Shown here: piece after piece, positions 650 to 25,669 of the stretch
Position numbering within the stretch: position 1 is the stretch's first letter
How the letters are laid out: every line of letters starts with the position of its first letter
Source: Craspedostauros australis
Taxonomy: Eukaryota
Length of the DNA stretch: 27,280 nt
NCBI GenBank assembly: GCA_030167865.1
Contig: JALAGF010001916.1
Coordinates: forward strand, 62,001-89,280
Direction of reading: 5' to 3'
Translations under genes and position numbers: made by a program
The notes under the pieces: model-generated
Databases searched by the model: none
What the model saw: the letters and a program-made list of their open reading frames with translations, nothing else
What the model was told of the DNA's origin: nothing

Positions 650-715
650 AAGAAACGTAGTGGAAGGTTTGTTTTATGATGTTAACGAGTTTGTTTCCTT
701 CGCGGCTGCCTTCTG
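650..715. repeat. Direct repeat A, copy 1 (copy 2 at 1856-1921)
   Basis: Ungapped manual alignment gives 54/66 identical (aagaaacgtagtggaag...gcggctgccttctg vs aagaaaagtagtggaag...gcggctgctttctg). Confidence 0.9.
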
Positions 716-1500
716 AGGCCGCCTGTGCGGCCAGTGAAGTTGGGCGACTGCCGAGCGTGTTGGTTGTTGGCGTGTGCAATGGTTTGGCACAGAAGATAGT
801 ACGCCACCGGTCCAGTTCGGCCGTCCTTGCCAAGCCCTTCCATTCGATTTGTGATGGATTCGGCAAGCCCAACATCGCAGGAGTTCATGATGAGGTCGTA
901 GGACCAGTACAAGTTCTGGCGAGTCACTTCGGATGAGCAGTAGTTGGCATAGACATGGGATGAGCCGAGGACGGCTTCGAGAGTGACGAATGGGCCTTGC
1001 TCCAGAAGATCGGAAAACACAGGATCACTGGCATTGAATTTGTAGACTCCCTTGCTCACCACCGTTGTATCGACCATCTCAAAGACATCATCCATGGAGT
1101 ACGCCTTGAGGCGCCGTCGGAGACGCGTCGCCAGGTTGCGGAAGGCATAGTTTTTGTCATGGAAGGTCTGGCCTTGAATGTTGGTGGACATGTTGGTGGC
1201 CTTGAACTTGGGCTTCAGGGCTTCCACAGCCATGGCCCGAAAGAATAGTTTGTCCCCTATGGGGAGCTTTGCTCGCTCATCTGCGGTGATAATGATCTGT
1301 GCTCTTTGTAGGTCGGCGTCAGAGATCGGTGTGGCTTGGAAACGCGGCACTGGCTTGGCCGTCATTTTGACGTCGCCTCCGGAGGATGCTGGGTCTGCGA
1401 CGATGCCAGTTTTGGTGTTGCCGTTGTTGGCTGGGCTGCTGAGGCCGGCTGTGTGGTCGGCGAAGTTGCCTGACTGCCGAGTATGTTGGTTGGTCACCAT
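682..1500 (-). pseudogene. Gag N-terminal/capsid-like fragment of a diatom copia (CoDi-type) element, truncated at ~767
   Basis: The stretch RRRLKAYSMDDVF...QNLYWSYDLIMNSCDVGLAESITNRMEGLGKDGRTGPVAYYLLCQTI matches the NLxWS..L.NSC...L...I......GP pattern I recall from diatom copia Gag. There is no Zn knuckle, protease, integrase or RT downstream. Confidence 0.65.
715..766. repeat. Direct repeat B, copy 1 (copy 2 at 1441-1492)
   Basis: Ungapped manual alignment gives 42/52 identical. At protein level, NQHARQSPNFTGRTGGL vs NQHTRQSGNFADHTAGL. Confidence 0.9.
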
Positions 1501-2154
1501 TGCAGCAGTGAAGGCTGGGACAAGGGTGTTGTGAGGGATGGTGTGAGCGGAACGAAGAAACCAAATAACTGTTGGAGCTGGTGTATGGCTGCAGAGTTGT
1601 TGGTGGACAGTGTCTGGTTCAAGCTGTTGTCAAGGGATGAGTCAGGCGAGGGCAGGATCTGTGCACCAGAAAATACCGATCTGGAAGCTGTGTCAATGAG
1701 GGGTTCGAGTGGGAGATCTTCGTCCATGGAGGGTCACTCAGGGAGGACCTTGCGGCTCATGGGAAGTGTGTGATGGCTGTGGCTGCAGGCTACACGGGCA
1801 GAAGAAAGTCGCAAGGTGTTATGATGCGGCTTGTGTGGTTTCCAGGCTCCTTACCAAGAAAAGTAGTGGAAGCAACGTTTCATTATGTTCACGAGTTCGT
1901 TTCCATTGCGGCTGCTTTCTGTCCACGGCTTTCTGCGATGTCGTCGTGGTGATAGCAGGCATGGACGTGGGTTGGATGCAGGCATCACCATGAGTTGAAT
2001 GCAGGCTGTCTTCACGATGCTCCGTGGTCTTGCACTCCGCGATCCATCCGCATTTCGTCCATCCATCTGTTCTTGTTGTGACTGTTGATCGTGTCTCGGA
2101 ATCGTGGGAGCGATTCTTCGCTGTCGGAGAAACACGCTTGGCGAGCTCAAATAT

Positions 2155-2675: not shown

Positions 2676-5600
2676 ATGAGGAAGCAAAAGGCCAAGAAGA
2701 AGGGCACGAAGAGCAAGCCACGCAATCGGGCACCATCGGCTTGTCCGGACTCTCCCTCCGACGGCTCCGACAGGAAGCCAGCATGGCCAGGCTGCGGGCT
2801 GCCCACGTGGATGGAACGCGACCTGCGCTGGCTGCCTGCCGACTGCGAAGACTTTGATTGGGATGCGAACGACGCTGAGATATCGCATGCTTCCAAAGAC
2901 CCATCGCGCACGGACGTCTCCATCATCACGTGGAACGTCCTGGCCGATTCGTACTGCACGCGTCGATCCCATCCTGGTCTACCGATGCGTTCTCAGAATC
3001 TCGTCTTCGATCGGCACAGACGACCCGACATGGTGCGAAGGACGCTCAAGTTCCTCCACGAACGGTTGGAGCCGGATATGTTCGCGCTGCAGGAGGTGGA
3101 TGAACCGCTGGAGATTGGGAGTCGCTTGCGATCGCTGGGATATGAAGGCATCGAGTCGCCAACGAATCCGGCGGGCAGAGATGGTCGGGTAGATGCCTGC
3201 TGTCTGTATTACAAGACCGACACCTGGAATCGTGTCGAACATGAGATCATTCGTCTTGATGATCTGGCCTCCATGGAAGCTCGCGCGGAAGGCAGCGATG
3301 GCGACGATGACAACAAAGGCTCCTCTCGACGTGGTTCCGTGGATGGAAACCTGCAAGGTTTGCAGACTTCGTTCCTAAGGCGGAACGTGGCGGTCATGGC
3401 CAGGATGGAGCATAAACAAACAAAAAAGCGGGTCGTTGTGTTGGTGGCACATCTGTTTTGGAACCCGATGTACGAATACGTCAAGGTAAGTTAACGCCGC
3501 TGCCGACCCAACAACTTTGAAGACCGTGCGCTTGCTGGTGTCGTTGTCAATGCCACCGGCCGTCGACAACATTCAATCATCATGCTCGGCTCAAATCGAC
3601 TCCGCCATGTTTCTGTTTACTTATGTTCTTTTCTATCATTTGACGTCATGCTACAACGTTCAACCCACCGCAATGTCCCGAACCATTCAGCTCTGCCAAG
3701 CCCACTACATCTTGACGCGAGCCCAAGCGTTCTGTGGAGACCAAACACCATTGATCGTATGTGGCGACTTCAACTCGAACCCAGGCAGCAACGTGCACAG
3801 GTACATGGTCGAAGGATCGGTCAATGCCAAGATGCTGGCCCCCTGGCACAACGTCGCGGTGCCCAAAGAGGATATCACGACTGTCGACCCGACGGCAACG
3901 CAAGCAGACACGAATGGGTCAGAGGCCGCGTCACTTTCGATGGAAGAAACTATGAACGGATTAAGTATGGCGACCGATTCAAGCGACACAAATGCACACG
4001 GCAACGGCTCTGCCTCTCATTCGAATACCGATAAGGACGTCACAGATGAGATCGTCAAACACGGCTCAAACATCCGATACTTGTTGGACTTCACGCTCAA
4101 TCGACTCTGTCGGTGGTTGCGAATACTTGGGATCGATGCTGCCTTGGAGACGGAGGCCGAAGAAAAGCTCAGGACCAAGCAGCAAAAGATGTACGTACCG
4201 CAGAGCAGCATTGGGTTCGAGTGTTGGTGTGATGGTAGGATACATGGCGTTGGATACATCTGCACCTCCGGCCTTGCACCGTGGCTGGAATGTGACGCAC
4301 CGGGTTTGAAGGATGCAATGCGTTTGCTCACCACGATCTTGTTTCATCGTGTCATTTCTTGTACTCTACCAATACATTATATTGCCAACATTCCCATTCA
4401 TATGTCAATGTCTCTGCCACGTCCTCGTTATTGCAATGGCAATCACAGCGAGATCTTCCGCCGGTGCCACGCTGAGAAACGCACGCTCATAACAACGTCA
4501 TCCCGATTGCTGGCTCGCAAAGATTGCCCACCTGGCACGTACCTGCTAACGACCAAGAGCCTATCGCATTTGGAATTGGCATTCCCGCATATCCTGTCAT
4601 CCCACGGTGTCAAGCTGTTTCCAAGGCAGTTCCTATCTCGCTGCGTGGTATGCAATGGACACATCCGAGGCGTGAGTGATGATCAAGTGCAGGAGATATT
4701 CTCGCAGCACCATGCGCCGATCGATCAAACGTTGGAAAAGCTGGACGTCTTCCAGTGTAGCGGATGCGGCCAAGGTTACTGGTGGTGCGATCAACCGACG
4801 AGTTCGGCATCACGAGTGAAGAACCAGGCGACGAAATTGCTGGAGTATTGCATCCAAGGCAACGTCGAAATCGATGAGGACATGGGGATGTTCGATTACG
4901 TCGATGTTGAAGCACTTCAGAACAGCAACCAAACGGACGATGGCGATGGGCCGTCCAGAATCGCCGGTCCTCCATTGGAAGTCGTGCGTTGGCTGAGACA
5001 GGATGCGCTGGCCAATCCGTTGGGACAGCTGAAAAGCGTGTACATCAAGTCGGACGACCCCACCAAGGAGGTGCTGCAGTTCACCAACCTGACGTCTCGC
5101 TTCGCCGGAGTGCTGGACTACGTGATGTACTTGCCTGGTCAACTGGAACTGCAGGAGCGGCTGTACGTACCCCTCGAGAAGGAGGACTTGAATTGCCAGG
5201 GAATTCACAACGGGCATTTGCTGCCGAGCTTTGTCTGGCCAAGCGATCATCTTGCCTTGGGTGCTCGCTTTTCGTTCGTGAATGACAACGATGGAGAACA
5301 GGGCGACAGCGAAGCGCAAGATGAGAAGAATGATTCGAAGGAGAGCAGCGCCGTCACTATCGAGCCGCAGCTGGACACAGAGAGCAGCGCGATGGTGCAG
5401 ATCTTGAAACAAGCAGTCAAGACCGACGACTTCCTATTTTGTGCCCCTGTTGGTGGTGAAATTACAGTCCCACCACCTGTAACTACGATCCCCAAACTGT
5501 TCAAACAGCCATTGGCGTCTTCTGGGCAGAACAAGGACGACCACGACGACCATCCGGAGACTGAAGATCATGGGGACAAATGTGCCTGCGGCTGCGTCCC

Positions 5601-5694
5601 GGACGTCCTTTCCTTGTTCGAAATGGCAAAACTCCGCAAGGAAGCAAGGGAGCGACGCAAGGCAAGGGCAGAGGGAGCGGCTGGAATTGCGTGA
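2676..5694 (+). CDS. CCR4/nocturnin-family EEP nuclease (deadenylase-like) with an internally inserted Mut7-C RNase (PIN-like + Zn ribbon) domain; exons 2676-3485, 3691-4190, 4449-5694; ~851 aa
   Basis: EEP motifs ITWNVLAD, ALQEVD, AHLFWNP..YVKLCQ (restored by splicing GTAAGT 3486..CAG 3690), CGDFNS, FTN..FAGVLDYVMY and PSDHLAL. Mut7-C motifs YLLDFTLNRLCRWLRILGIDA, EKRTLIT, FLSRCVVCNG and FQCSGCGQGYWW. Intron 2 is GTACGT 4191..CAG 4448. Confidence 0.88.
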
Positions 5695-6409
5695 GGAGGT
5701 GGAAGAGCACCATACTCGTATGGTTAAAGGCATGGAATAGTACTTCGGGGAGTGGCGGTAGCCGATCACAACCACATAACAATAACCGTAGAAGTTACCG
5801 ATGTTTTACTCGTATGTGCCTAGGCAGAACTTGCGGACAGAACTTGTGGACAACGATAGAGTACTTTCTCCCAGAGAGACAGAGGGTGCGTGTATGGGCG
5901 CTGCGCTGCGGGTACGCACGAACTACGCTCTGGATTCTTCTGTCTTGGGGGTAGCCTCTGTCATGTGCGTAGTCGTAGCGAGGAATGACGAACACCAAGA
6001 TCGAAAAAAGACGGATGTCTCCGATCCAAATGACCGCGACCAGACACAAAACCAAACGAAAACCGTGGACAAGACCAACCCACCACGGAAGCCGTCGCCT
6101 TCGTGCCGCGCGCCGTTCAGTCCCTGACACTCCTGTTCCTGGTGTCGCTGTCGACGCCCCACAAAGCCCCCACACATACACAACATCAACTCAACTCGAC
6201 ATCATCGACTCTCCGCCGACCTCCTCGTCTTGGTTGTAATCATCACGTTTACACATTATATAATACTATCGCAATCAGCCGACAACGGCAAACACAATTT
6301 GCGGACCAGGAGATTAAAATTGAGTGATTTTCGCTGGATCTCACAGCTCAACTGTGCAACTGTGCAACACAGCAACACGGGCAACACGGGCAACAAAGCA
6401 AACGGAACG

Positions 6410-7390
6410 ATGCCGCGATTAGGCGGAGCGAATGATGGACTCAACAACGTCAACGGGGACAACAGCGGCAGGGCCATGACTTCAGGATCCGGATCATCAG
6501 GATCCAGATCGACAACGCCGCGACGCAGGACGAGATCAAGGACGAAACGATCGGCCGCATCGCCTTCGCTGTCCTGGTCGTCCTTCTCCGCCTCGTCGCG
6601 CAAGTTGTTCCTCCTCCTGCTCAATCACATGCGCAATTTGATGACGTCCATCACGACGTTTGCAAGACGGCGCATGAAAGGAGGTTCATCCACGCCCAAC
6701 GCGCTGCCCAAATGCAACTCTCGCAACGTCATGTTGGCATTGATGATGCTGTTTGTGTTGCGCAACATCCTCGTGCAGGACTATAGCCAAACGACGCCCG
6801 AGACGATAACCACGCACACCGCCGACGATCTGAGGAAGCGCGGGTACAGCGAAGAGCAGATCGCGCGTCTGCAGGAAGATCCACGACACAAGACGCAACG
6901 GCGAGATCTCGGACCTTCGATGAAGCGCGATGAGATCACGGCGTTGAAACGCGATGTCAATTTTTTGTTGCGGGAAGTCAGCGATCTGCGCCGGCGCACG
7001 GTGAATGGGGAGGAGGGTGGCAACGATCCTCCCAGCACCGATGATATTCAACGCGAGCTGGATATTTTGCATATGCAGAAGCGTCGCAAGCGAGAAGAGA
7101 AGATGGGGTTGCATACCGACTACGCAGATGGTCTGGATTGGCCGGTGTCGGATGGTGATGCGCATGCGCGGGATGCTGGATTCCGGGAAGGTTCCGGAGA
7201 GAGGCATGGTCGGAACCATGAAAGGCTGAAAGCAGCCAGGCATGGACATTTTGAGAAGATTGGTGAGAAGGTGGATGCGAATACAGGCGGGCTTGGAGGT
7301 GTCGACACAAAGCAACAAGGAGGGGAAGCAAGCGCTGGCGGTGGCGGCGAGAGCGTCGAAGAAGATGAAGCAGAAGAAAGGAGGATCTGA
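6410..7390 (+). CDS. Hypothetical single-pass membrane protein with coiled-coil-like segments (326 aa)
   Basis: Long ORF with first ATG at 6410. S/R-rich N-terminus, hydrophobic stretch VMLALMMLFVLRNILV, and heptad-like EITALKRDVNFLLREVSDL. Confidence 0.75.
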   Translation: MPRLGGANDGLNNVNGDNSGRAMTSGSGSSGSRSTTPRRRTRSRTKRSAASPSLSWSSFSASSRKLFLLLLNHMRNLMTSITTFARRRMKGGSSTPNALPKCNSRNVMLALMMLFVLRNILVQDYSQTTPETITTHTADDLRKRGYSEEQIARLQEDPRHKTQRRDLGPSMKRDEITALKRDVNFLLREVSDLRRRTVNGEEGGNDPPSTDDIQRELDILHMQKRRKREEKMGLHTDYADGLDWPVSDGDAHARDAGFREGSGERHGRNHERLKAARHGHFEKIGEKVDANTGGLGGVDTKQQGGEASAGGGGESVEEDEAEERRI

Positions 7391-7937
7391 GAGCAATGAT
7401 TTGGTCAGGCATTGCTCTGCGTGCATGTTAAGTTGAGACTGATGCTAGAGAATACTTGCAGCAAGCAACTCAATGGCTTCGACCAGTTGTCGAATACTCG
7501 TAACGTATGGTAGTCTATGAATGTGCATGGAGAAGAACTGACATGGCAATACGAATGTGGTCAGCTGACATCTGAGCAATGTGGATGGAGCAGTTGCGCA
7601 AGGATGGCGAACTTACCTGGAGGAGGTAAGGGGAGGCATGGGTAGGTACGACAATGTGTGGTATTAGGCATTACTGGGAACTGAAGATCTCCGACCGGCT
7701 TCGTTCGTGTCTCGCCATGGAGCCAAGTCACGAGTGACCGTTTCGTGATGATGGATGGCACTTGGCACTCTTCTCATCGCTCAAAAACCGCCGCGTCACC
7801 ACGATCAGGGACACAATCAACACAACCATCATCGTGATCGACCATGGCCAAGAACGCTGATGTCCCCGTTCAATCGACGTGACACAACACCAAAGGCACA
7901 TTCAAGCAACAAGCAACAAGTACAATAGCAAGCAATC

Positions 7938-8927
7938 ATGGTCAAACGCAACAATCCCAACGCCAGCATCATCAGCAGCAGCATAGTTGGAAGCAGCATG
8001 GACAGTCCGAAGCTCAGCAATCCTCAAACTGCGACTGCGAGCGAGAGCGCTTTGTTCCAGACGATCAGTGACAAGAATGCCGCAGTCAACGCCGCAGTCA
8101 ATGCCAGCATCAGCCCCAACATCAGTCACCACGGCAGCCACCACGGCAGCCACCACAGCAGCAACAATGGAAAGCAAAAGACAACCCAACAGCGACGGCG
8201 CGCCAACATCTTGCAACCCCTCGATGACTTCCTCGCCAAGCTCGTGCGCTTCTTCGCCACGTCGTCCGGCAAGGAACGCACCATGAAACTGGTGCAGTAC
8301 ATGCTGTGGTTCCTCTCGCACTACTACTGCTCAGGCCAGACGCGAACCTCGTTGGAGAATCTCAGCGGTGAGGTGTTGTGGGCGCGGTACGTCCTGCGCT
8401 TCTTCGGGTGGCCGTCCGCCATCCAAGCCGCGCGCACGAATTGCTGGGCGCCCGGCAGGATCGGCAGGCTCCTGGCGTGGTCCATGGTGGCGTACTTCCC
8501 ATTGGAGCATGCGGCCTACCTGCATTGGAAGGCGCCGCAGTTGATGCGGTCGTCGCGGCCGTCGCAGGTGGCCAACACGCTGTCGGCATGGTCGTGCCGA
8601 TTCTGGATGGTGTACATCATGGTGGATACGTATCGCGCGCTGCGATCCTTGCAAGACTTGCAACGAGTGCAGCAGCAACAGCAATTCAATGATGCCTCGT
8701 CTCCTCTCGATTCAAGTCATGACTACGACGACCATGGCACCGCCATTCAGATTCAGAACGAGCGCATCGGCTTGCTGCGCAACTTCCTGTCCTGTGTCCC
8801 AGCCTATCATTGGTCTTTTGATACGGGAGAGTCGGGCGTTTCGAATGTGACCGTCAAAGGAATGATGCTGACGGACGCTGTCGTGGGATTCTATCAAGAG
8901 GTGCGCAACTTCATGAGGAAGCAGTAG
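7938..8927 (+). CDS. PEX11: Peroxisomal membrane protein, PEX11 family
   Basis: LVRFFATSSGKERTMKLVQY (PEX11 N-terminal GR/KD/EK..R/K..QY motif), ARYVLRFFG, AYFPLEHAAYL, LSAWSCRFW, and a C-terminal hydrophobic helix. Confidence 0.85.
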   Translation: MVKRNNPNASIISSSIVGSSMDSPKLSNPQTATASESALFQTISDKNAAVNAAVNASISPNISHHGSHHGSHHSSNNGKQKTTQQRRRANILQPLDDFLAKLVRFFATSSGKERTMKLVQYMLWFLSHYYCSGQTRTSLENLSGEVLWARYVLRFFGWPSAIQAARTNCWAPGRIGRLLAWSMVAYFPLEHAAYLHWKAPQLMRSSRPSQVANTLSAWSCRFWMVYIMVDTYRALRSLQDLQRVQQQQQFNDASSPLDSSHDYDDHGTAIQIQNERIGLLRNFLSCVPAYHWSFDTGESGVSNVTVKGMMLTDAVVGFYQEVRNFMRKQ

Positions 8928-11484: not shown

Positions 11485-11588
11485 CCACACATCAGTTGAT
11501 AGATCAAGTGCAACCACAAGTGCAAGTACAAGTACACCACACATCAGTTGATAGATCAAGTGCAACCACAAGTGCAAGTACAAGTGCA
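11485..11588. repeat. Tandem duplication, 2 x 52 bp, 1 mismatch
   Basis: ccacacatcagttgatagatcaagtgcaaccacaagtgcaagtacaagt(a/g)ca at 11485-11536 and 11537-11588. Confidence 0.95.
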
Positions 11589-11644
11589 CGCATCGCAATC
11601 GCCACCGCCACCACCACACCAGTGCCGGCGTAGTCGATACCACT

Positions 11645-14600
11645 ATGGTGCATCCACACAACGTCGACATCTGCGTGACGTGCGTGAGCGACAAGCCGCC
11701 CCAGCTCCCCCTTCGTGAAGAATTGCCGAGCTTGGGAATCGAGGTCGTGTACAATGCCCAAGGATTGGCAGCGCGCGCGAGCAAGCAGGAGAGCAAGAAG
11801 CTGGTGAAGCAGCTCCGATCCAGCGATGATGCCAAGAAGCAAAAGCACCCGCGATTCTTCTCGAGGCAGAACAAGAAGAAAGCCGAACAGAAGAAGGAAG
11901 CTCGTAAGCAGCTGGAGAACAAGCTGCGAGTTCCCAAGGCGCTGTCGTATCAGAAGTACGGAAGCAACCTGGCCAAGAACGGCAGCACGGATTCCAGCTC
12001 AGGCTCCAGCGCGGGCGGAACAAACGAGGACAGCAACATCGGTGGCAAGGCCGGTGTGGCAGGCAAGAACCGAAAGGACGGGCATCAATTCCATAGGCTG
12101 CAGCAGGATGGAATGAGCGGCAACCGCATCGATCCGGGCAAGTCCAAAAGGACCGGTTGGAGGAAGTACTTGCCGGGAAGTCCACGCAAGAATTCTTCCA
12201 AGAACAACTTCAAGAACGGCAACGCTGCGAACAACAACAACAACAACTACGGGAAGAACAAGGAATCGCGCATCACGCCACCGGCGTCCGTGGAATTCCC
12301 CACCTCCGCAATCCAACCGCAGCAATACATCAAACCTATCACCGTCCCAGCAACCAAAGAGGAAGCTGCAGTTGTCAGCGCGTTCGAAGCATTCGCGGAC
12401 ATCAACCCGAGCGCCGTCTACGAAAGTCGTCCCAATGATCCGAGCAACTTGCTGCCACCGTATGAGGCTGATTTGTCAACCATCTCATCCACCCCTGTGA
12501 TGGTACAATCATCAACGCCAGTTCCGGCACCAGCCCCAAGGAAGAACGGTGATGCCGTGTCGTCTGCTGTTCTTGCACTCGATCCTCCTCCCCCTGCGCC
12601 AAAGACCCAACGAAAGTCAGATGGAAAGAAGCACGCGAGCCGTCCAATCACCACGGCGCCAGGGCCAACGCCAACACCACCAATCCCACCCTTGCAAGGA
12701 GGCGATGCTGGACACAACGGCATGTACACCACAGCTCCTGGCAGACACACGTTGAACATGACATCATTGATGGACCTGAGTCAAGAAGAGAGCTTCACGA
12801 CGCAAGGCAACTCAGATGCCTCCTTATCTTCCAAAGATCGCCTGCCCGCGAGAAGGAAGCAAGCGAATGTGGTGGTGCCGTCTGAGAATAACTTCGCCAC
12901 TGGCAACCACAACCCAATGGTACCCGTCAGAAACAGTGCACCGAACACATCCTCCAGGCGCAACGAGGTCAGCAACAAGGCACATCGCAAGGGTGATGTC
13001 GACATCAGCGGTATCGCAGATGCGATGGATCGCATAGAAGCATCCAACGACAGCAGCAACACCAGAAGCAACAGCGCCAGCTTCAACTCATACACGAACA
13101 TGAATGTGGACCTGAATGCTCTCGCGGATGGTCGCAACCAGGTTGTAGCGGGACCTGCGAACAACACCATCATCATCAACAGCGGAAACAACAACAGTGT
13201 TATCGACACTTCCAAGACCGATGCCATTGGTAGACAAACTGGCGACAATGTACCATACACCTCCAGCTCGAATGACAAGTCACACAGCGGCCGTCAGGTG
13301 GCGTCACTCGCATCGTTGGGATCATCCTACGACGCATCAACGTGGACGACCAAACTGGAACCGGCCGGATCGAAGAGCTTCGTCCATGTGGACACCACCA
13401 AGGCAATCCAAGAACACCACCTTCCAGGACTTGCCCTGGAGGAGGAGCAGCGACCGCCATCACCTCCAAGTCTGCAACAGAAAACCTCCAGCAAGGATCC
13501 ACCTGGTTCATCCAGGGACGATGAGCCCCTCTCACCTGTGGGAAACCACGCGGATGCTATTCATGGAGTTGAGGAGAACAGATTCAGCGACGATGTCAAT
13601 CCGCGGGCCACTGGCAAGTTCCAGTCGAAAGTGTTGGCGAGTGATGCCAATTACTCCTCCTCCTCCGCAACTGGTGCATCTCGGGAAGAGGCGATCCTGT
13701 TGCATCTGAATGGTGGTGGTGGTGGCAGTGGCATCGAAAACAGCGAAGATGTCAAAGACAGCGCCGAACCAGATACCAGCAACAGCACCAATATCGGTAT
13801 CACTGCCGCTGGCAATGCCACTACCATGAAACAAGTCAGCACCAACGTGGATATACAAGAGCACACAGAGCACGACGGCAACAGCACCGTCAACAAAGGC
13901 ACTCCACAATCCCATGCAAGCAATGTCATATTCGATTTCAAGAATGCAGACGCGAGACTGCAGAAGCTTGGCGTTGCCCCTGAAGGTATTGCCACAGGTA
14001 ACGACAACGGCAACACCAATGTCAACATCAGCAACAATAACTCCACCCAAGTCACCACACAGATGTTCGAATACAACGTCAGCGTCCCGATGACGTCGGG
14101 CTACGAATACGAGACAACGAACATGACGATCGACATGCCCAAGTCCATGATGGAGACCACCAACACGAACACGAACACCGAGCATGATGGCAGCACCGCC
14201 GATGACACCAACGGCGATAACAGCAGCAACCAAAAGACAGATGTAGTGCAGCAGAGCCCCACCCAGCATACTCAGCAGGCTGTGAGGGAGTTCTACGACT
14301 TGACTGAGATCTCTGACGACGATGAGATTGTCATCGATGCCTTGTCCGCCAGCCAAGTCACGAGCGTCGTTTCGCTGGAAGACAATCCTTTCCCCATCCA
14401 ATCGCCGCGTAGCGACATGGGAGATGAGAGCCTCGGCGATTCCAACAGCGTCGGTGCTGGCAACGGTGACCATGACCATGGTGCAGGTACCCTGAACCAG
14501 CATATCGATGATGGCAACCAGCGGCAACGAGCGGCTGATGACATTGCAGGGCGCCCAATGATGCCTCCGCAGCCGCAGGAAGGTGCTGAGCAACGGTTGC

Positions 14601-17600
14601 CGCAACAACGAATACCTGCAGCAATGGAAATGGGAGCAACCAACTACTCAGAGCGGCGAGATGTCGCTGCAGTGGACCACAACCGGAACGGTGAACGCCC
14701 AAGCCGAGCGCAAAGCGCCAACCAGCGCCATTCAACCCCGCCAGCTGCCATCAACAGAATTGGCAGCGACCCGACCACATCTGCGAGTCCGAGTGCTCTG
14801 TCAGCCCGCCAAAACCAGAGGTACCAATCCCCCGGTCCCTTGCCATCTTCGATGTCAAATCCGACACACTACGGCAGCCATCACCAACAACCAAATCAGT
14901 TCCAGTCGCAAAAGCAGCACATGTACTCGCATCCGCATCCGCACCATCATCAACGCCCTTCGCCTCTCATCCCTGACAGAAACTTGATGGATGATGACGT
15001 GACGTCGCGTTCCGCTGACAGCAAGGAGTCCTCGGACCAACACGCCATGTCCTTCGATGAGCTGCGGGAGGCGCCGACGGAACCAACCAGTCATCATAGC
15101 CGTGACAAACGCCCAGTCGACGCAGACATCCTCGGTCTGATCCGCACCACCCAGGATCGAATCTTGCGCAACTACCAACAGCAGGAATTGGAGTATGAAC
15201 AACAACAGCAAGAGCAGCGACAGCAGCAGCAAAATCCACAACCAGCACGCATGGTGGATTCCGCTTCTCCATTGCGTCAGGCCATGGCTGACAATGTAGG
15301 TGCAGATCCATACTACCGTCCAGGCGTCGAAGAGAGCAAATCAGGCACATACTACGAAGATCCCAACCCGAGAGTGACATTTGATCAAAACGTGCACCAG
15401 ATGGTTCCAGCGACATCTGTGCCACCAATGCCAATGTCCACGCCACCCGCGTTGTACCAAGCCGACGGAAACCCCGGCGATTCTGGAAGTGCTGACACCA
15501 GCACCAACAACAGCGACATGCACGCCAACGCCAACTTGAACGACGCTGACGAATTCCGTGATGCCGACGAGCAGCTGCAAGGTCTCAATGCAGCTGACGT
15601 GGATGTTCCGCAGCAACAATACCAGCAGCAATATCAGCAGCAGCATCGTAGCAACGCGGCAGGCTACGACGCGATGCAAAGCATGGTCACCGCAGATGAC
15701 TTCCATCATAATGTGACAAGAGCAGACTCGCATGAAGTCATTCAAGTCTCAACGAACACGAGCAACGATCCAGGGGAAGACCGAATTGATGAAGAGGTTC
15801 TTGGAGACATCTTCATGCAGCAGCACGATCGCCTGCATGGCAACTTTGATACAATCGATCAATCCATCGACCAGAAGTTGCAGCATCGCGACAGCCAGCA
15901 GCATGATGTTCATCATCAAATGCGCAATAGTTCACCGGAACAGGACACATTGGAGTACAGCAGCAGCATCCATCCCAATCGTGACATAATCACCAGCATG
16001 AACTACGATTCGTACTCCCAAAGCGAAAACCGCGATCACGACAGGTACGAGGTTGGACAAGGCGGATACAGCCAGCCCAGGATTTCGAGTGATCATGATG
16101 ATCATCAATATCATGATGAGAGACAGGTTAATTTCCAACACCAACGAGGAAATCATGCGATGGAGCCGACATCATCATCACCGTCACCACGTCCAAACAC
16201 CGTCGATGTCAATGAGTCTTCGCAACGACCAGCGCAACAGCATCCCGATGCACCTGGAGTCATTCACATCGACAGCGGCATGAGTGGTGAACCTCGCATT
16301 TCGAGCATCGATGCGGCCGATCGCAGTGGCGAAGAAGAAACAACGCAACTTCAGTTGGATGGCAGTCCGCTGAACCCAGCCACTCCTCAAAATGAAGCAC
16401 GGCTGGACTTGGACACTCCAACAGTCAAAGCCAATAATGACGGCGAGCGCCATGACGATGATGATGAGACGCAGGCGCACATTGATAATCTCAACAACTT
16501 CAGCGCAAGCCCAATGAGAAGCATGCAACAGCAACCAATGAATGCAACAGCGGCGGCAAAGTCAGAGGCGGCGACGAGGCCGAATACGGATGACCAACCT
16601 GAGCACATGATGGGCCACCTCCCTGTGTTTGGTTTCAAGATGAATGCGCGTGATACATATGCGGACATTCCACAATTGCTGTGGGAGAAGCCGTCGTTAC
16701 CACATCGCAAGCTCGAAGGAGTTCACGATCAGTACCTCATCCACGCCCTGTGCAACAAGGAGCTGGACATTCCACCACCTGGACCCACCAAGACGCTGAC
16801 GGATGCTCTCATCTCCACCGTCGACACTCACCTCAGCAACATCAGGCTTGTCGCATCGCGAAACATCGAGGCATGCCTTCACGCGGATGCATACAACGAT
16901 CTCCCCGTTCACCTCCTGGCCAGGCGGCTGATGGAGTGGGAAGGAGAATGGTACCAGGGCGTCTACGAACGAGCGCAGGAGGAAGACGAGAGGAAGAACA
17001 GCAACGGTGGAACCGGCGGCACGATCAGCAGTGCGGAGGCGGTCACCCGCCTGTACCAAGGCATGTCGCAGTGCATCGACGCAGTGCTCAGCCCCATCGG
17101 GAGCAACTCGTACCTCTGCCGGCGGGACGGCAGCATCGGCGTCATGCTCCCATTGCATGTCGCATCCATCTTCACCGTCCCCTTCACGACGCTCAACGCC
17201 ATTTTGGATGGATATCCAGCAGCCGCGGGCATTCCTTGCAATCTCGAAGGCTTGAACACGTTCATTCCGGCCGAGTGCTTCCCCCTGGAATTGCACGACC
17301 GTCTCTCGACCGACTTTCCGAAATGGGAAATAGAGAATGCTGCAACAACCACCGCGAACGATAGTGGAAACGTCACCAGCAAGGACAAGTCCAAACTCCG
17401 ACGATCCGATCTGCTGTTTGCGTACCATCCTGGCATCTCGCCATACCAATTCGATGAGGACCGGATCCAGAGGCTGGAGGAGCACATCGTCGATGAGGTG
17501 CAACGTGTTGTCGACAAGAACGAGAACGGCGAATTCCACCTCTCGCGTGCCACGCAGAGAATGTGGGTCTGGTTCTGCACGGAGGGTGGCGATCTGCACG

Positions 17601-19897
17601 TGCCGAGCATGGAGAGGATCCTGAGAGAGCTGTCGTACCGCTGCGTCCTGGTGCTGGCTTCCGTCGTCGATGCTGCATCTGGCAAGCACGTGGTGGACGT
17701 AGCCTCCAGCACGTGCGCCGTGATCACGCGAGAGCATTTGGAACGGTTGTCGGCGTTGCACATTCCCGTTCCCATGGAAGTGGAACGCATCCACACGAGT
17801 AAGCGGTTGGAGACTTGGGAACGCGAGATCATCAGCCGTCGTCAGTTCCAGGGCCGCGGATTCGCCAGCTCCGTCTTCCGCACGGCCTTCAACGTCTCAG
17901 AGGACAAGTTCCCAACCTCCTTCGTTCTGCTGCCGTACAAGCTGGTGCGCGACCGTCAAGGACGGTTGGGATTGGAATCCGAGCACGCTGCCCAGATTGC
18001 GATGCGGTTTGCGGACTGCCTTATCGAACTGACATCGCCTGAGTTCATCTGCCAGCTCATGCACAAGAAGACTCAGCGATTCCACACAAACGGCGAAAGC
18101 TGCAACATGTACACCCTGCAAACCACGGAGACGAGGGCGTTCCAGATCGCGCTCGAGGACTTCCTCGATCTCTACCAGGGTGACGAGGCGTACCTCTACC
18201 TCATGGACGAATACAAGGGCGTTCCCATCGTGCCCAACGCCGGTGATGTGTACCCGCTTCCGGTCACCGACGCCGCAGACATCGTGCAGAAGGTCCTCCC
18301 GTTGATGGTGGGTGGGATGTTGCAGATGCGAGGCAACAAGTCGCTTTCCATCATCGCTGAGGTGATTGCCCGCGACACGCTGCCAGCCATCGGCGAGTGC
18401 TGGAGGGAGGCAGCCAAGGACATCACCGGCTTCATCTTCTCGCCGCAAACGCAGTGGACCCAATCGTTCCTGCAGGAACTCTTGCCGCAACGTGATGACA
18501 TCCTGGATGTCCTTGACGATGACGCTGATGCTGAAAACGGCAAGGACGAAGAAAACGACCACATCATCCTCAACCGTCGCAACCATCAGAGCGCCGAGTC
18601 TGGCGTCGACAAGCTCCAGCACATGGCGATGAGGCAGAAGAAGAGGAAATGCAAGTGCGATTGCACGGCCCGCACCTCCACCGGTGCTTGGGTCGTGGAA
18701 CTGTCCCTGCTGCGCATGCTGCTGGAGATGCATGATCCCAAGCACACCTTCGCCGGCCTCAAGCTGCGGCGCAAGGGTAATCAGGTGCTTTGGAGCGCAG
18801 ACTTGCGATTCCTTCACAAAACGTTGAGCGACCGCACGTACGTCCACTACGACTTCAAATCCGTCGAAGATCTGAGGATCCTGTCCTCGCTGGAGGCGGA
18901 GAATCAGAACAACGCGGCGCAGCAAGGATGGGATGACGACAACGAGGCCAGCGTCACCGATGATGACGATGATAATACCTTTGACAACAGGTCTCATCAC
19001 AGTCGCGAAAGCTACGTCGGGTCATCGTATGACATGCTCTTCGGCGAGCTCTCCCTCACGAAGGAAAGCAGCGACGTAGCCACTAGCACTGGCGCCAGCA
19101 ACGCAGTCTCCCGCAACGGCTTCCACATCCACAACCAGAACAACCTGAATCAAATGTCTGCAGTGTCGGAAGCTCGTGATGATTTGGAAGAGGCCAGTGA
19201 TCAGGACAGAGCTGTTCCCGCAACTGGAATCAACAACGCCGCGGCTGTCGATGAAGAAACCGACAATGAAGCAAGCGAACGATTGACCTTGATTGAACGA
19301 TTGAGAAGGTTGCGCCTTGAAGCAGCCAATCGCACTCGCAATGGCAACAGATCCACTGACGTTGAAGTTGCTGACAGTTCTGATGGTGCTGCTGCCGACG
19401 GTGCTGACAAGAAGGACGCCAAGACAAACGCCCTCGGCCACTCCACACAGCCCATCGTCATCCATTCCGTCCTGGAGCCCATGACTGAGACCTTTGCGTC
19501 GGAGGCGGAACCGATCTCCCTGCTGGACTTCGATGATGACTTCCGTCTCGATGGATTCCTGCAGATGCGCATCCAGCTGGACGAACAGGAAGCGAAGCTG
19601 GACTTCCTGGGCGAGAAGCTGTCTCGCATCCACATGGCGGAAAAGGATCTTTTGGATGACGAGGATAAGATCGCGAACATGCTGGAATCCGCACAGGCCA
19701 AGACTGGTGCGCTCGTCAAGGCATCATCTGGCACAGGATGCGGATTGACGGAAGCAAGGAAGCTGCTGATCCGTTTGTGCGATTTGGAGGATCGGTTGCT
19801 GTGCAAGGAAGTTGAGGTTCAGCATCTGAAGCTGGACATCTCCGTGTTCGAGATGGAGGCCCACACCAAGAAGATGTCGTCAACCATCACAGAGTGA
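11645..19897 (+). CDS. Giant intronless 2750-aa protein: ~1650-aa disordered N/S/Q/P/H-rich N-terminus, ankyrin-like repeats, Roco COR-B-like domain, C-terminal coiled coil
   Basis: Uninterrupted 8.25-kb ORF. Ankyrin-like DAYNDLPVHLL, GVMLPLHVA and LDGYPAAA. Motifs PTSFVLLPYKL, YLYLMDEYKGVP..YPLPV and LRMLLEMHDPKHTFAGLKLRRKGNQVLWS. Heptads in the last ~110 aa. Confidence 0.9.
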   Translation: MVHPHNVDICVTCVSDKPPQLPLREELPSLGIEVVYNAQGLAARASKQESKKLVKQLRSSDDAKKQKHPRFFSRQNKKKAEQKKEARKQLENKLRVPKALSYQKYGSNLAKNGSTDSSSGSSAGGTNEDSNIGGKAGVAGKNRKDGHQFHRLQQDGMSGNRIDPGKSKRTGWRKYLPGSPRKNSSKNNFKNGNAANNNNNNYGKNKESRITPPASVEFPTSAIQPQQYIKPITVPATKEEAAVVSAFEAFADINPSAVYESRPNDPSNLLPPYEADLSTISSTPVMVQSSTPVPAPAPRKNGDAVSSAVLALDPPPPAPKTQRKSDGKKHASRPITTAPGPTPTPPIPPLQGGDAGHNGMYTTAPGRHTLNMTSLMDLSQEESFTTQGNSDASLSSKDRLPARRKQANVVVPSENNFATGNHNPMVPVRNSAPNTSSRRNEVSNKAHRKGDVDISGIADAMDRIEASNDSSNTRSNSASFNSYTNMNVDLNALADGRNQVVAGPANNTIIINSGNNNSVIDTSKTDAIGRQTGDNVPYTSSSNDKSHSGRQVASLASLGSSYDASTWTTKLEPAGSKSFVHVDTTKAIQEHHLPGLALEEEQRPPSPPSLQQKTSSKDPPGSSRDDEPLSPVGNHADAIHGVEENRFSDDVNPRATGKFQSKVLASDANYSSSSATGASREEAILLHLNGGGGGSGIENSEDVKDSAEPDTSNSTNIGITAAGNATTMKQVSTNVDIQEHTEHDGNSTVNKGTPQSHASNVIFDFKNADARLQKLGVAPEGIATGNDNGNTNVNISNNNSTQVTTQMFEYNVSVPMTSGYEYETTNMTIDMPKSMMETTNTNTNTEHDGSTADDTNGDNSSNQKTDVVQQSPTQHTQQAVREFYDLTEISDDDEIVIDALSASQVTSVVSLEDNPFPIQSPRSDMGDESLGDSNSVGAGNGDHDHGAGTLNQHIDDGNQRQRAADDIAGRPMMPPQPQEGAEQRLPQQRIPAAMEMGATNYSERRDVAAVDHNRNGERPSRAQSANQRHSTPPAAINRIGSDPTTSASPSALSARQNQRYQSPGPLPSSMSNPTHYGSHHQQPNQFQSQKQHMYSHPHPHHHQRPSPLIPDRNLMDDDVTSRSADSKESSDQHAMSFDELREAPTEPTSHHSRDKRPVDADILGLIRTTQDRILRNYQQQELEYEQQQQEQRQQQQNPQPARMVDSASPLRQAMADNVGADPYYRPGVEESKSGTYYEDPNPRVTFDQNVHQMVPATSVPPMPMSTPPALYQADGNPGDSGSADTSTNNSDMHANANLNDADEFRDADEQLQGLNAADVDVPQQQYQQQYQQQHRSNAAGYDAMQSMVTADDFHHNVTRADSHEVIQVSTNTSNDPGEDRIDEEVLGDIFMQQHDRLHGNFDTIDQSIDQKLQHRDSQQHDVHHQMRNSSPEQDTLEYSSSIHPNRDIITSMNYDSYSQSENRDHDRYEVGQGGYSQPRISSDHDDHQYHDERQVNFQHQRGNHAMEPTSSSPSPRPNTVDVNESSQRPAQQHPDAPGVIHIDSGMSGEPRISSIDAADRSGEEETTQLQLDGSPLNPATPQNEARLDLDTPTVKANNDGERHDDDDETQAHIDNLNNFSASPMRSMQQQPMNATAAAKSEAATRPNTDDQPEHMMGHLPVFGFKMNARDTYADIPQLLWEKPSLPHRKLEGVHDQYLIHALCNKELDIPPPGPTKTLTDALISTVDTHLSNIRLVASRNIEACLHADAYNDLPVHLLARRLMEWEGEWYQGVYERAQEEDERKNSNGGTGGTISSAEAVTRLYQGMSQCIDAVLSPIGSNSYLCRRDGSIGVMLPLHVASIFTVPFTTLNAILDGYPAAAGIPCNLEGLNTFIPAECFPLELHDRLSTDFPKWEIENAATTTANDSGNVTSKDKSKLRRSDLLFAYHPGISPYQFDEDRIQRLEEHIVDEVQRVVDKNENGEFHLSRATQRMWVWFCTEGGDLHVPSMERILRELSYRCVLVLASVVDAASGKHVVDVASSTCAVITREHLERLSALHIPVPMEVERIHTSKRLETWEREIISRRQFQGRGFASSVFRTAFNVSEDKFPTSFVLLPYKLVRDRQGRLGLESEHAAQIAMRFADCLIELTSPEFICQLMHKKTQRFHTNGESCNMYTLQTTETRAFQIALEDFLDLYQGDEAYLYLMDEYKGVPIVPNAGDVYPLPVTDAADIVQKVLPLMVGGMLQMRGNKSLSIIAEVIARDTLPAIGECWREAAKDITGFIFSPQTQWTQSFLQELLPQRDDILDVLDDDADAENGKDEENDHIILNRRNHQSAESGVDKLQHMAMRQKKRKCKCDCTARTSTGAWVVELSLLRMLLEMHDPKHTFAGLKLRRKGNQVLWSADLRFLHKTLSDRTYVHYDFKSVEDLRILSSLEAENQNNAAQQGWDDDNEASVTDDDDDNTFDNRSHHSRESYVGSSYDMLFGELSLTKESSDVATSTGASNAVSRNGFHIHNQNNLNQMSAVSEARDDLEEASDQDRAVPATGINNAAAVDEETDNEASERLTLIERLRRLRLEAANRTRNGNRSTDVEVADSSDGAAADGADKKDAKTNALGHSTQPIVIHSVLEPMTETFASEAEPISLLDFDDDFRLDGFLQMRIQLDEQEAKLDFLGEKLSRIHMAEKDLLDDEDKIANMLESAQAKTGALVKASSGTGCGLTEARKLLIRLCDLEDRLLCKEVEVQHLKLDISVFEMEAHTKKMSSTITE

Positions 19898-20281: not shown

Positions 20282-22131
20282 CTACTTCTTTGGTTTGAAG
20301 AATCCCATGAGAGTTCCCTGCTTCATCCCCGTCGGTTTGCTCTTGCCGCTGGTCGACTTTGATTTCGATTTCTTGCTGGATGATGAAGAAGAAGATGATG
20401 CGATGGGCTTCTTCGTCCTCCTCTTGTTGTCCTCCGACCTCAGCTCGTCCTCTGGTATCTCTTCCCACACGGTCTCCATCTTCGTATGAAGGTATCCATT
20501 CTCCATGTAGGTCTTCTCCACGAGACGCTTGCGCCTTGCACGACCTTTCGTCGCTGATGATGCTTGCGAAGAGTTTTGTGACTTGCTGCGATCGACTTGG
20601 TCAGGTTTCTTCTTCGTTGCAAATGCGTCCATCGCACCGTAAACGGTCTCCGATGATGGATCGTCATATTCACAAGCATCATCGTCATCGTCATCGCCAT
20701 CGCCGTCGTCATCCCGTTTATCCTTGCCTTTGCTGTTGTTGTCATCGTCGTTCTGTTCACTGTTATCATCTTCGTCGGCATTGGTTTTCTTGCTCTGAGA
20801 TGCTTGCGAAGCATTGCGCACCATCTTGCGATGAGCAGCCTGTTGCTGACGCTTCTGCTTTTGCTTGGCGAGCAACTTCTCTTCCTCTTCCTCATCCTCA
20901 TCCTCGACGTCACCGATGAAATCATCCGCGTTCCCAATCTTGGCGTTGCTGCTGGTGGTGGTGATGCGTTTGCTGGAGTCCTGCTTGTCGATGTTGGTGG
21001 ATGCCTGTGACGATGTTGGCGGCTTGCGTTCTGCGAGTTTGGAGGGGCTCGAAGGAGTAGAATGCGCTCTCTTCATTTTGGAGACTGATGATGACGATGA
21101 CGACGAGGATGATGCTCCGAGTAATGTTGACTTTTTGGAGGATTGCGACGACTTCATGAAAGCGTCCATCGTGTTGGCTCGTGCCATTGGCTTCGTTCCC
21201 TTCGTGGGTTTGATGGTGGAAGACGTTGTTGTGGAAGTTGCGTTCGTCGGTGATCCATCCTTCCCCTTCCGCTTTCCATTTGGCTTTTCAGCATGCTTGG
21301 AGAAGAACGCTTGCGCAGTTGTCGTTGTCTGCTTTGATACTTTGTTTTTGAATGTTTGGTTGCTGATCCTGCTGTTGGCGGATAGCGAGGAGATGGTAGT
21401 TGGGTTGGCAGGCCGTTGCTTGTTCGGGGCATCCTTCATGCAGTGCTGGATCTGCGGAGATGGCCGAATGGATGCTGCGAAAGCCATGGCAGAACCATCA
21501 GTGTTGGTCTGATCCCGTCGCTTGATCAGATCACGTTCCAAGGCGGTCGATAGAGCTTCAGTTGTCTGCGTCGATGCCAATGCGAAGATGGTCGCCGTGT
21601 TGCTATCGAAATCCTCCAGTGAAGTTACCTCCTTCAACCGGAACACTGCAAACGCAGACGCACGAGGTGTTGCAGTTGGTGGTGAGATGGTGGGGTGGTG
21701 AAAATGGTTGGAGACGGACAGAGAGGTATCACAGAAAGTGATGTATAATATGTGAGAGGAATGTGAGCGTGCGAAACGTCCATCATACAATGTGTACGCG
21801 ATAATATACAACGTTTCGAGCAACGGGGACAGTGCAATGCCCGTCCACCACGCCAACGAATATTGTAATGCCACCCATCTTCGGACGTACCCGTTCCACC
21901 ACCACCACCATCCTTGGGAAGCCTCTGACAAAGCGTGATCTTGACTCCGTGATCACCATCGCCATTGCCATCCTGCTTCTGCATCATGGCCACAGCAACA
22001 TGGTGGAGGATGTCCGATGCCTGTTGGAGGGAAATTTGGAATTCCTGACATGCCCGATGCGATGTGATGCGTTGTTCTTGGCTGCTGGCTCCTGCCAACC
22101 AACTTGCCACCACTGCCTTCGCGGACGACAT
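20282..22131 (-). CDS. POLD3: DNA polymerase delta subunit 3 (POLD3/Cdc27/Pol32); exons 22131-21891 and 21645-20282; ~534 aa
   Basis: C-terminal PIP box KQGTLMGFF and the upstream RKRLVEKTYMENGYLHTKME motif typical of Cdc27/p66. N-terminal winged-helix-like RITSHRACQEFQISLQQASDIL. Intron GTACGT 21890..TGCAG 21646 joins the exons in frame (phase 1). Confidence 0.85.
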
Positions 22132-24892: not shown

Positions 24893-25669
24893 GCCGTCAA
24901 CGGACCGCAGTCATCGTTGTGATTGTGATTGTGATTGCAGTTGGCGACGTGGCAAGAGGAACAATGCCAGCAACGAGGACCCATGTGGCAATTCGCCGTT
25001 GCTGCGGACTCTTTATGGTACTCCACTCATACGAATCTTGCGTGTAGCAAGGCAAAGAAGATCGCAATCATTCCCATTTTCAATAACATTAAAAACAAAC
25101 TTGTGCATGCAATCCTCAGTGGCAGCTTCTGCGACTGGAGAGCACTGGTTTGCTTCGGCGTAGCCACGCGACGCTCGTGCAAGCGGTGGTGATCTTTACG
25201 AGTACTCCAGAATAGTGTGGTATGTGACCCTGCCTTCGATTATATTCATACTACTCCTGTGTATTGTAGTCGTACGTATGAAACGGATGCGATCTACCCA
25301 AGCCTGACAATGACACCCTCTCTACACACATCTCTTCAGCCTCACATCTTTCCACACGTAACGGTCGAATGAATCAAAGTCCTCCACTCATGTCTCGTTC
25401 GCGCGCCAACAAACACGTCAACACGATGACGAATCGACCAAAACAGCGAACCGAACGCAACGTCGGCTTCATTCTGTTCTTCCACTTCGCGAGAAACGAT
25501 CACTGCGCGATACACTCGACACTTTCTTCCAAACTCGTGTTCCCACGCTCGTCTTCTGACGCCCTCTCTTCTGCTCCCACAAAACAAGGGAGGAGACCAT
25601 TTCCGTCTCTGCTCATCACCCATCAAATAACACACGTCACGCATTCCCATCGCCCTCACACGATCGAAG

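Follow-up and report, generated by a model that had tools for sequence, protein, structure and literature searches.

A Mut7-C domain nested within a CCR4-like EEP domain in a conserved family of algal proteins

The CCR4 deadenylases of animals and fungi, among them yeast Ccr4, CNOT6, and human CNOT6L, combine an N-terminal leucine-rich repeat (LRR) region with an EEP catalytic domain. Within the CCR4 EEP superfamily, several enzymes have proved to be phosphatases or phosphodiesterases: Nocturnin acts on NADP(H), ANGEL2 is a 2',3'-cyclic phosphatase, and PDE12 acts on 2'-5' oligoadenylate or mitochondrial poly(A). A 3'-5' exoribonuclease of an unrelated fold, DEDD, is found in animal MUT-7/EXD3, where it carries a C-terminally appended Mut7-C domain (Pfam PF01927). 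Here, we describe a gene of Craspedostauros australis whose predicted product joins elements of both systems, with a complete Mut7-C domain nested inside a CCR4-like EEP domain. It lies in a stretch of 27,280 nucleotides, hereafter the window (GenBank assembly GCA_030167865.1, contig JALAGF010001916.1, positions 62,001 to 89,280, forward strand), and all positions below are counted from the first letter of that window.

Accessory domains accompany both kinds of exonuclease. According to the available text of Busetto et al., MUT7-C raises the RNA affinity of MUT-7/EXD3 6-8 fold and speeds degradation (PMC11347159). Plant CCR4 proteins (AtCCR4a/b, OsCCR4a/b, and HvCCR4) are EEP enzymes that, like the window protein, lack the LRR and possess a zinc-binding accessory domain. 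That domain is an N-terminal MYND-like finger, which has replaced the LRR and binds CAF1, and is neither a Mut7-C domain nor nested, as set out in the accessible part of PMC7105381. Finally, Mut7-C occurs in archaea and bacteria as a stand-alone protein of about 150-265 amino acids, in some cases with a ubiquitin-like N-terminus.

Among these systems, the window protein stands closest to CCR4, CNOT6, and CNOT6L, which are its best profile and fold matches, share its catalytic motifs, and have the same alpha/beta sandwich that is predicted for it. In contrast to them, it has no N-terminal LRR, and it carries an insert of about 300 residues that contains Mut7-C, a basic N-terminus, and a C-terminal cysteine/helix motif as extra parts. 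MUT-7/EXD3 likewise pair PF01927 with a 3'-5' exoribonuclease, and the C-terminal domain of MUT-7 (8q66) is the top Protein Data Bank (PDB) fold match of the insert, albeit a modest one. However, the exonuclease of the window protein is EEP rather than DEDD, and its Mut7-C domain is nested rather than appended. PDE12, Nocturnin, and ANGEL2 have the same fold and catalytic motifs as the window protein and are strong matches, but they score lower against the family profile than CCR4 proper, have no nested domain at the corresponding loop, and differ in their substrates. We consider that the gene belongs to a conserved algal family of CCR4-type 3'-5' exoribonucleases, probably deadenylases, with a nested and probably non-catalytic Mut7-C arm, a reading to which we assign a probability of roughly 0.6.

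The assignment to CCR4 is carried by the catalytic residues and by profile comparison. None of the catalytic columns (N, E, H, D/N, D, and D-H) varies among the 50 family sequences compared, and all of them are present in the window protein, where N87, E140, H259, D296/N298, D660, and D703/H704 correspond to the catalytic and metal-binding residues described for CNOT6L. A profile built from 50 family members matches human CNOT6L (E 9.7e-39) in two stretches that flank the insert, such that profile positions 54-295 align with chain residues 28-272, and positions 575-667 with residues 303-382. The roughly 280 profile positions in between constitute the insert, and their counterpart in CNOT6L is a loop of only about 30 residues (chain 273-302). 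Among PDB entries, the family profile scores 136.5 bits with CNOT6L, 131 with CNOT6, and 122.7 with yeast Ccr4, followed by PDE12 (117.6), ANGEL2 (98.8), and Nocturnin (93). LRR families are absent from the window's exon translations (Pfam, E up to 1) and from the 39 homologues that were scanned; the microsporidian CNOT6 protein P0258, which carries an LRR, shows how a positive scan looks. Likewise, no match to the DEDD exonuclease family (DNA_pol_A_exo1, PF01612) was found in the window translations or the scanned homologues, nor any zf-MYND-like or zf-C6H2 domain in exon 1 (Pfam, E up to 1).

The nested domain is recognised with ease. When the frame is read through from 3691 to 5691, Mut7-C scores 67.1 bits (E 2.4e-18) against a Pfam cut-off of 23.3, and the match covers profile positions 2-135 of 146, extending across both exon parts. 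A fold model was made with AlphaFold2, using a 50-sequence alignment, for the homologue P0005 of Nitzschia inconspicua (786 amino acids, 45% identical). In this model (mean predicted local distance difference test score, pLDDT, 79; predicted template modelling score 0.78), both EEP parts and Mut7-C are confident and the linkers are disordered. A Foldseek search of the PDB with the model returns CNOT6L first (3ngq, E 3.7e-17, target template modelling (TM) score 0.76-0.77), followed by ANGEL2, CNOT6, PDE12, and Nocturnin; since the CNOT6L alignment runs over 644 columns, it crosses the insert. As modelled, the two EEP halves form one fold. A first-pass annotation of the window had proposed that a complete Mut7-C domain separates GDFNS from FTN..LDY in a CCR4-family EEP domain whose motifs are all intact, and had suggested AlphaFold as a means to see whether the EEP halves reassemble. 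Pfam, the alignments, and the CNOT6L profile match all agree with this placement, and the P0005 model shows a single, CNOT6L-like fold.

Proteins of this design are widespread. A word-indexed search yielded 219 relatives; PF01927 occurs in all 120 of those listed, joined in most of the long ones by PF03372 (Exo_endo_phos, the EEP family). Named sources include Nitzschia, Cylindrotheca, Pseudo-nitzschia, Fistulifera, Mayamaea, Amphora, Cyclotella, Thalassiosira, Conticribra, and Stephanocyclus. An exhaustive HMMER search returned 2136 proteins at E up to 1e-3, of which 620 remain at 1e-10 and 160 at 1e-30. Two sets of chosen relatives were scanned with Pfam, and both families were found in all 14 of the first set and in 24 of the 25 in the second. 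The best EEP stretch, reaching to about profile position 186, precedes Mut7-C in 13 of 14 homologues, and in P0096 and P0163 the end of the EEP profile (180-225) is matched behind Mut7-C; in P0185 and P0247, a single EEP envelope (1-225) spans the insert. We termed proteins anchor-complete when they contain GDxN, the second CxxC..YWW, and WPSDH, which holds for 146 of the 298 proteins gathered, and in 145 of these 146 the order is GDxN, then zinc ribbon, then SDH. MMETSP open reading frames (ORFs) that are transcript-derived and marked complete (P0025 and P0253) hold both domains; hence, the insert is not spliced out in those species.

The nested family occurs in pennate and centric diatoms, in pelagophytes, and in several further eukaryotic clades. 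Divergent members, with 30-40% identity, are distributed over several clades, at least five of them beyond those named. The pelagophyte clade includes Chrysophaeum taylorii and Pelagophyceae sp. CCMP2097, and the clade of P0225 comprises 45 matches. A quick tree of 33 hand-picked rows, which has many long branches, places the window protein beside Nitzschia and Pseudo-nitzschia (support 98), within a clade of diatoms (support 99). By contrast with these inserted forms, an oomycete protein of 305 amino acids (P0257, Thraustotheca clavata) passes from GDFNSLP..Y to ..SAY..FTN within about eight residues and, judged from its sequence, shows the un-inserted state. The first-pass annotation had called the architecture lineage-specific, a description that does not survive its presence in 145 of 146 relatives across diatoms, pelagophytes, and further clades. 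It had also reckoned with a design both widespread and already described; widespread it is, while no paper describing it was found in the literature searched. Separately, one member (P0244, 766 amino acids) bears a DUF4291 domain (E 3.6e-20) on the N-terminal side of its nested EEP/Mut7-C unit.

What the insert might do can be approached by comparing it with Mut7-C domains elsewhere, and five prokaryotic Mut7-C proteins were aligned with the algal inserts for this purpose. The two sets share a core of xxD..L..LARWLR.LG.D, RC..CN, and C..C..YW. The algal insert retains the first aspartate (LLD), the basic RWLR helix, the arginine before the TxS motif, and the four zinc-ribbon cysteines. The columns of C502, C505, C540, and C543 are invariant in three alignments, including one with the five prokaryotic proteins, and the column of D403, the first aspartate of the PIN-like half, is invariant or nearly so across alignments. 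The remaining acidic positions are another matter. Where the canonical domain has its DDE segment, the algal insert has a variable ETxEE..RT segment, and at the TRD position none of the 146 anchor-complete proteins has RD (serine in 139, TA in 4, DT in 1, and 2 not matched by the pattern). The DDE and TRD acidic residues that the algal insert lacks are kept by three of the five prokaryotic proteins (L002, L004, and L005); at the TRD position, one of the other two has TRS and the last is divergent. When 14 divergent members of the family are compared, the first aspartate is the sole invariant acidic residue in the insert, and R310, R313, and R347 are conserved. Because the TRD aspartate is lost, the acidic residues vary, and MUT7-C has a published role as an RNA-binding helper, sequence comparison suggests that the insert is probably a non-catalytic arm that binds RNA or a partner, rather than a second nuclease. 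The first-pass annotation had seen two RNA nucleases in one chain; with RD in 0 of 146 proteins, only the first aspartate invariant, and MUT7-C published as a helper, this is unlikely.

Taken as a mechanism, the EEP core would act as one Mg2+-dependent 3'-5' exoribonuclease domain, most likely trimming poly(A) or other 3' ends. The surface loop that follows the GDFNS strand, some 30 residues long in human CNOT6L, would have been replaced by about 300 residues, in which a disordered linker leads into the complete Mut7-C domain, made up of a reduced PIN-like half and a Cys4 zinc ribbon, and a helical linker leads back, with the two EEP halves refolding as one catalytic domain. The Mut7-C arm may then feed or hold the substrate by binding RNA or a partner, much as MUT7-C does for the DEDD exonuclease of MUT-7/EXD3. 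Deadenylase activity, RNA binding by the insert, and any link to CCR4-NOT are what we infer from these comparisons.

The gene itself comprises three exons on the forward strand (2676-5694; Table 1), which join to 2556 nucleotides encoding 851 amino acids, with the sole stop codon at the end. The chosen start codon is supported by homologues, which begin with M[KR]K.K.K in its alignment column. Both splice junctions are crossed without gaps by 12 homologues, the protein reading seamlessly through YEYVK/LCQAHY at intron 1 (the slash marks the junction), and no homologue has residues within intron 2. The exon 1 translation (amino acids 42-270) matches the 50-homologue family profile with E 1.6e-67 (hhalign), and the match ends exactly at YEYVK. 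At the second junction, the end of exon 2 matches positions 2-34 of the Mut7-C Pfam profile, and exon 3 takes the profile up again at 4450 and covers its positions 33-135; since the profile closes over it, the junction 4190/4449 is supported. The exons and junctions (3485/3691 and 4190/4449) are the same as those of the first-pass annotation, with profile, homologue alignments, and a conserved intron in agreement.

Since intron 2 keeps the frame and contains no stop codon, ORF callers read through it. The 695-amino-acid protein P0001 in the protein database is such a read-through ORF of this window itself. In the diatom protein P0018, an unrelated in-frame read-through begins at the same codon, with the same MYV start from AT/GTACGT; two different read-throughs at one and the same codon show that the position of the intron is conserved and that the residues between the exons are non-coding. 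The Mut7-C matches of P0018, P0111, and P0146 all break at one profile position (about 33-37), a hint at a conserved intron that ORF callers read through. The case illustrates how ORF-based calls on eukaryotic contigs yield read-through proteins, such as P0001 and P0018, where an intron is in frame and stop-free.

Several observations weigh against the preferred reading of a CCR4-type exoribonuclease with a non-catalytic arm. The fold evidence comes from the 45%-identical homologue P0005, and not from the window protein. A model of the insert (P0153, pLDDT 86.6) has the MUT-7 C-terminal domain 8q66_A as its top PDB match with probability 1.00, but with a modest E of 4.3e-3 and a TM score of 0.40. 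In the window pieces, Pfam's Exo_endo_phos reaches 22.1 bits (E 1.5e-4), below its cut-off of 24.5; exon 2 covers profile positions 132-190, and exon 1 taken by itself gives no Pfam match (E up to 1). That score reflects the fragmented pieces rather than the domain. The first-pass annotation had expected Exo_endo_phos to be split around Mut7-C, and this is borne out in homologues, together with the Mut7-C match of the window, but not by an Exo_endo_phos score above cut-off on the window pieces. As for the insert, one bacterial Mut7-C protein, L001, also has TRS, and the first aspartate with nearby glutamates (ETEAEE) is retained, such that residual metal binding or catalysis is possible. These last points bear on a bifunctional enzyme, in which the PIN-like half of Mut7-C would cut endonucleolytically and the EEP domain would then trim the new 3' end. 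The invariance of D403 and the acidic cluster behind it speak for such an enzyme, as does conservation of the Mut7-C part that is at least as strong as that of the EEP part, and archaeal Mut7-C proteins are called active RNases in the available portions of two comparative papers (PMC4075521, PMC1779556). Yet the TRD aspartate is absent from all 146 members, the GxD aspartate and the glutamate cluster vary in divergent members (P0237 has GIN; also P0229 and P0244), and isolated C-terminal MUT7-C domains of MUT-7/EXD3 served as negative controls in RNase assays, according to the accessible text of PMC11347159. A cutting insert is, on balance, improbable. Far less credible still is an artefact of the gene model, in which neighbouring EEP and Mut7-C genes were misread as one, or a Mut7-C exon block is normally spliced out. 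The in-frame, stop-free intron 2 does make ORF-based models unreliable here, but FTN, LDY, and SDH follow Mut7-C in the same frame, so that only a reading that passes through the insert yields a complete EEP domain, and the same order recurs in 145 of 146 relatives, transcript-derived ORFs among them.

The identity of the EEP core raises a different question, namely whether it is a phosphatase or phosphodiesterase that Mut7-C tethers to an RNA or nucleotide substrate. We keep this alternative, which we regard as unlikely, because the lead of CNOT6L is small and members of the superfamily have repeatedly proved to be phosphatases. The narrowness of that lead over PDE12, together with the strong matches of PDE12, ANGEL2, and Nocturnin in both sequence and fold searches, also weighs against the preferred reading, and with P0005 alone as query, PDE12 becomes the top PDB match. 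Arabidopsis CCR4C, a plant CCR4-family member, has lately been reassigned as an NADP(H) 2'-phosphatase, as stated in the available part of PMC12557515. Nevertheless, the family profile scores best with bona fide CCR4 proteins (CNOT6L, CNOT6, and yeast Ccr4), and an RNA-binding Mut7-C partner suits polymeric RNA better than a dinucleotide cofactor. The other alternative overlaps with the preferred reading and differs from it only in the role of the insert: the protein might be the CCR4 subunit of an LRR-less CCR4-NOT complex, docked to CAF1 or NOT1 by the Mut7-C insert or by the C-terminal cysteine/helix motif. Its nearest solved relatives are CCR4 proper, the LRR was not found in the window protein or the 39 scanned homologues, and plant CCR4 offers the precedent of a zinc finger in place of the LRR (PMC7105381, accessible part). 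In the text available, CAF1 is reported from diatoms (PMC7408324) and C. elegans MUT-7 binds MUT-8 through MUT7-C; the MUT-8-binding surface is, however, a nematode-specific insertion (PMC11347159). We judge docking through these elements to be a somewhat doubtful possibility. The first-pass annotation had concluded from the missing LRR that this is not a canonical Caf1-binding CCR4; the LRR is indeed not found, but binding to CAF1 is not thereby excluded, given the MYND-like finger of plant CCR4.

The preferred reading leaves the two ends of the protein to be described. The N-terminus (2676-2735, MRKQKAKKKGTKSKPRNR) is rich in lysine and arginine, and pennate-diatom homologues share the pattern M[KR]K.K.K...KRR.K.KAK. 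It resembles a signal for nuclear localisation or a segment that binds nucleic acid; a signal peptide is not apparent. At the other end, the C-terminal motif is present, by pattern count, in 66 of the 146 anchor-complete relatives, from centric and pennate diatoms and with P0150 included, and is also visible in the aligned P0163 and P0213. It has no Pfam match. The C-terminal helix has a pLDDT of about 82-85 in the P0005 model, and the sequence could be that of a zinc knuckle followed by a docking helix.

The window is eukaryotic nuclear DNA with about 50-57% G+C. Its recognisable neighbours (PEX11, the Cdc27 subunit of DNA polymerase delta, and a MatE transporter) have no apparent functional link to the nested gene. 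The stretch 11555-19897 (+) contains a single open frame of 2780 amino acids without a Pfam match, in which Ser, Asp, Asn, Gln, and Thr are abundant; it lies in a strong A-over-T skew of about 0.27-0.32 and probably encodes a large, mostly disordered protein. Further long ORFs without a Pfam match are found at 682-1629 (-), 6128-7390 (+), and 23106-24892 (+). An Rfam scan of the whole window returned no match.

Table 1. Features of the nested EEP/Mut7-C gene and of its neighbours, in window positions (aa, amino acids; nt, nucleotides).
Feature	Position	Strand	Remarks
Exon 1	2676-3485	+	aa 1-270; ATG at 2676; N-terminus, conserved W motif, first EEP part
WN (N87)	2928-2948	+	EEP motif
QE (E140)	3087-3101	+	EEP motif
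HLFWNP (H259)	exon 1	+	EEP motif
Intron 1	3486-3690	+	205 nt, GTAAGT...AG; shifts the reading frame
Exon 2	3691-4190	+	aa 271-437; GDFNS strand, APW, linker 1, Mut7-C start
GDFNS (D296/N298)	3760-3783	+	EEP motif
APW	3835-3849	+	conserved; exon 2
Linker 1	3850-4074	+	acidic/Ser-rich; exon 2
Mut7-C domain	4075-4818	+	aa 399-560, split by intron 2; PIN-like half and zinc ribbon; PF01927
RYLLD..RWLRILGID (D403)	4075-4149	+	Mut7-C start
Intron 2	4191-4448	+	258 nt, GTACGT...AG; in frame, stop-free
Exon 3	4449-5694	+	aa 437-851 and TGA; rest of Mut7-C, linker 2, EEP C-terminal part, low-complexity tail, C-terminal motif
RTLITTS (S454)	4480-4512	+	TTS where the canonical TRD stands
CVVCNG (C502/C505)	4642-4659	+	first zinc-ribbon pair
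CSGCGQGYWW (C540/C543)	4756-4785	+	second zinc-ribbon pair
YWW..P.SSASRV	within Mut7-C domain	+	family-specific
Linker 2	4819-5028	+	aa 561-630; partly conserved; helical in homologue model; leads back into EEP fold
EEP C-terminal part	5029-5277	+	aa 631-713; LKSVY, FTN (N650), LDY (D660), WPSDH (D703/H704)
LDY (D660)	5110-5124	+	EEP motif
SDH (D703/H704)	5236-5250	+	EEP motif
C-terminal motif	5569-5691	+	H..KCACGCVP..SLFEMAKLRK, also written H..RC.CGCVP..SLFEMAELRK, then basic helix; follows long low-complexity tail
PEX11 ORF	7929-8927	+	Pfam E 1.1e-14
DNA polymerase delta subunit Cdc27 ORF	20282-21952	-	E 3.9e-8
MatE transporter ORF	25631-27280	+	E 7.6e-39; runs off window end

The nested design is automatically labelled in public databases yet uncharacterised, and the window gene is one ordinary member of its family. 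No paper describing an EEP/Mut7-C protein was found in the literature searched, subscription papers and supplements lying outside the search, and this agrees with the first-pass annotation, which knew of no characterised protein of this architecture. Within the available portions of that literature, Mut7-C fusions were met only with DEDD exonucleases, ubiquitin-like domains, and tRNA-editing domains. The idea that plant CCR4 itself has Mut7-C at its N-terminus, under which the pairing would be an already characterised one, was rejected: the accessible part of PMC7105381, citing Chou et al. 2017, gives a zf-MYND-like domain, the Streptophyta cluster in the Atlas combines PF03372 with zf-C6H2 (PF15801) and lacks PF01927, and no paper on Mut7-C together with CCR4 was found in the literature searched.

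The family offers a clean natural case of domain insertion, with a whole folded domain accommodated in a loop of a catalytic domain from centric diatoms to pelagophytes, and the oomycete protein P0257 would provide a natural control without the insert. That Mut7-C is here joined to a further exonuclease fold, unrelated to DEDD, also lends support to a recent proposal in which MUT7-C serves exonucleases in general as an RNA-binding helper, and the proposal becomes testable in a new system. More tentatively, Mut7-C might be a portable clamp for RNA 3' ends that evolution has joined, on two or more occasions, to 3'-5' exonuclease folds unrelated to each other, to DEDD in animal MUT-7/EXD3 and to EEP in ochrophyte algae, where it would be threaded into a loop beside the active site and could form a composite RNA channel with the core. 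On this possible view, the diatom protein would be either the LRR-less CCR4 of CCR4-NOT, docking by Mut7-C or by the C-terminal cysteine/helix motif, or a counterpart of MUT-7/Nibbler that trims the 3' ends of small RNAs or transposon RNAs. The role in small-RNA or transposon RNA metabolism, which the first-pass annotation had put forward as a possibility, is conjecture.

Diatoms and their relatives perform a large share of ocean photosynthesis, and their mRNA-decay machinery is, to our knowledge, almost unstudied. Of their proteins, the nested family appears to come closest to the CCR4 deadenylase; the LRR of animals and fungi and the MYND-like finger of plants are both missing from it.

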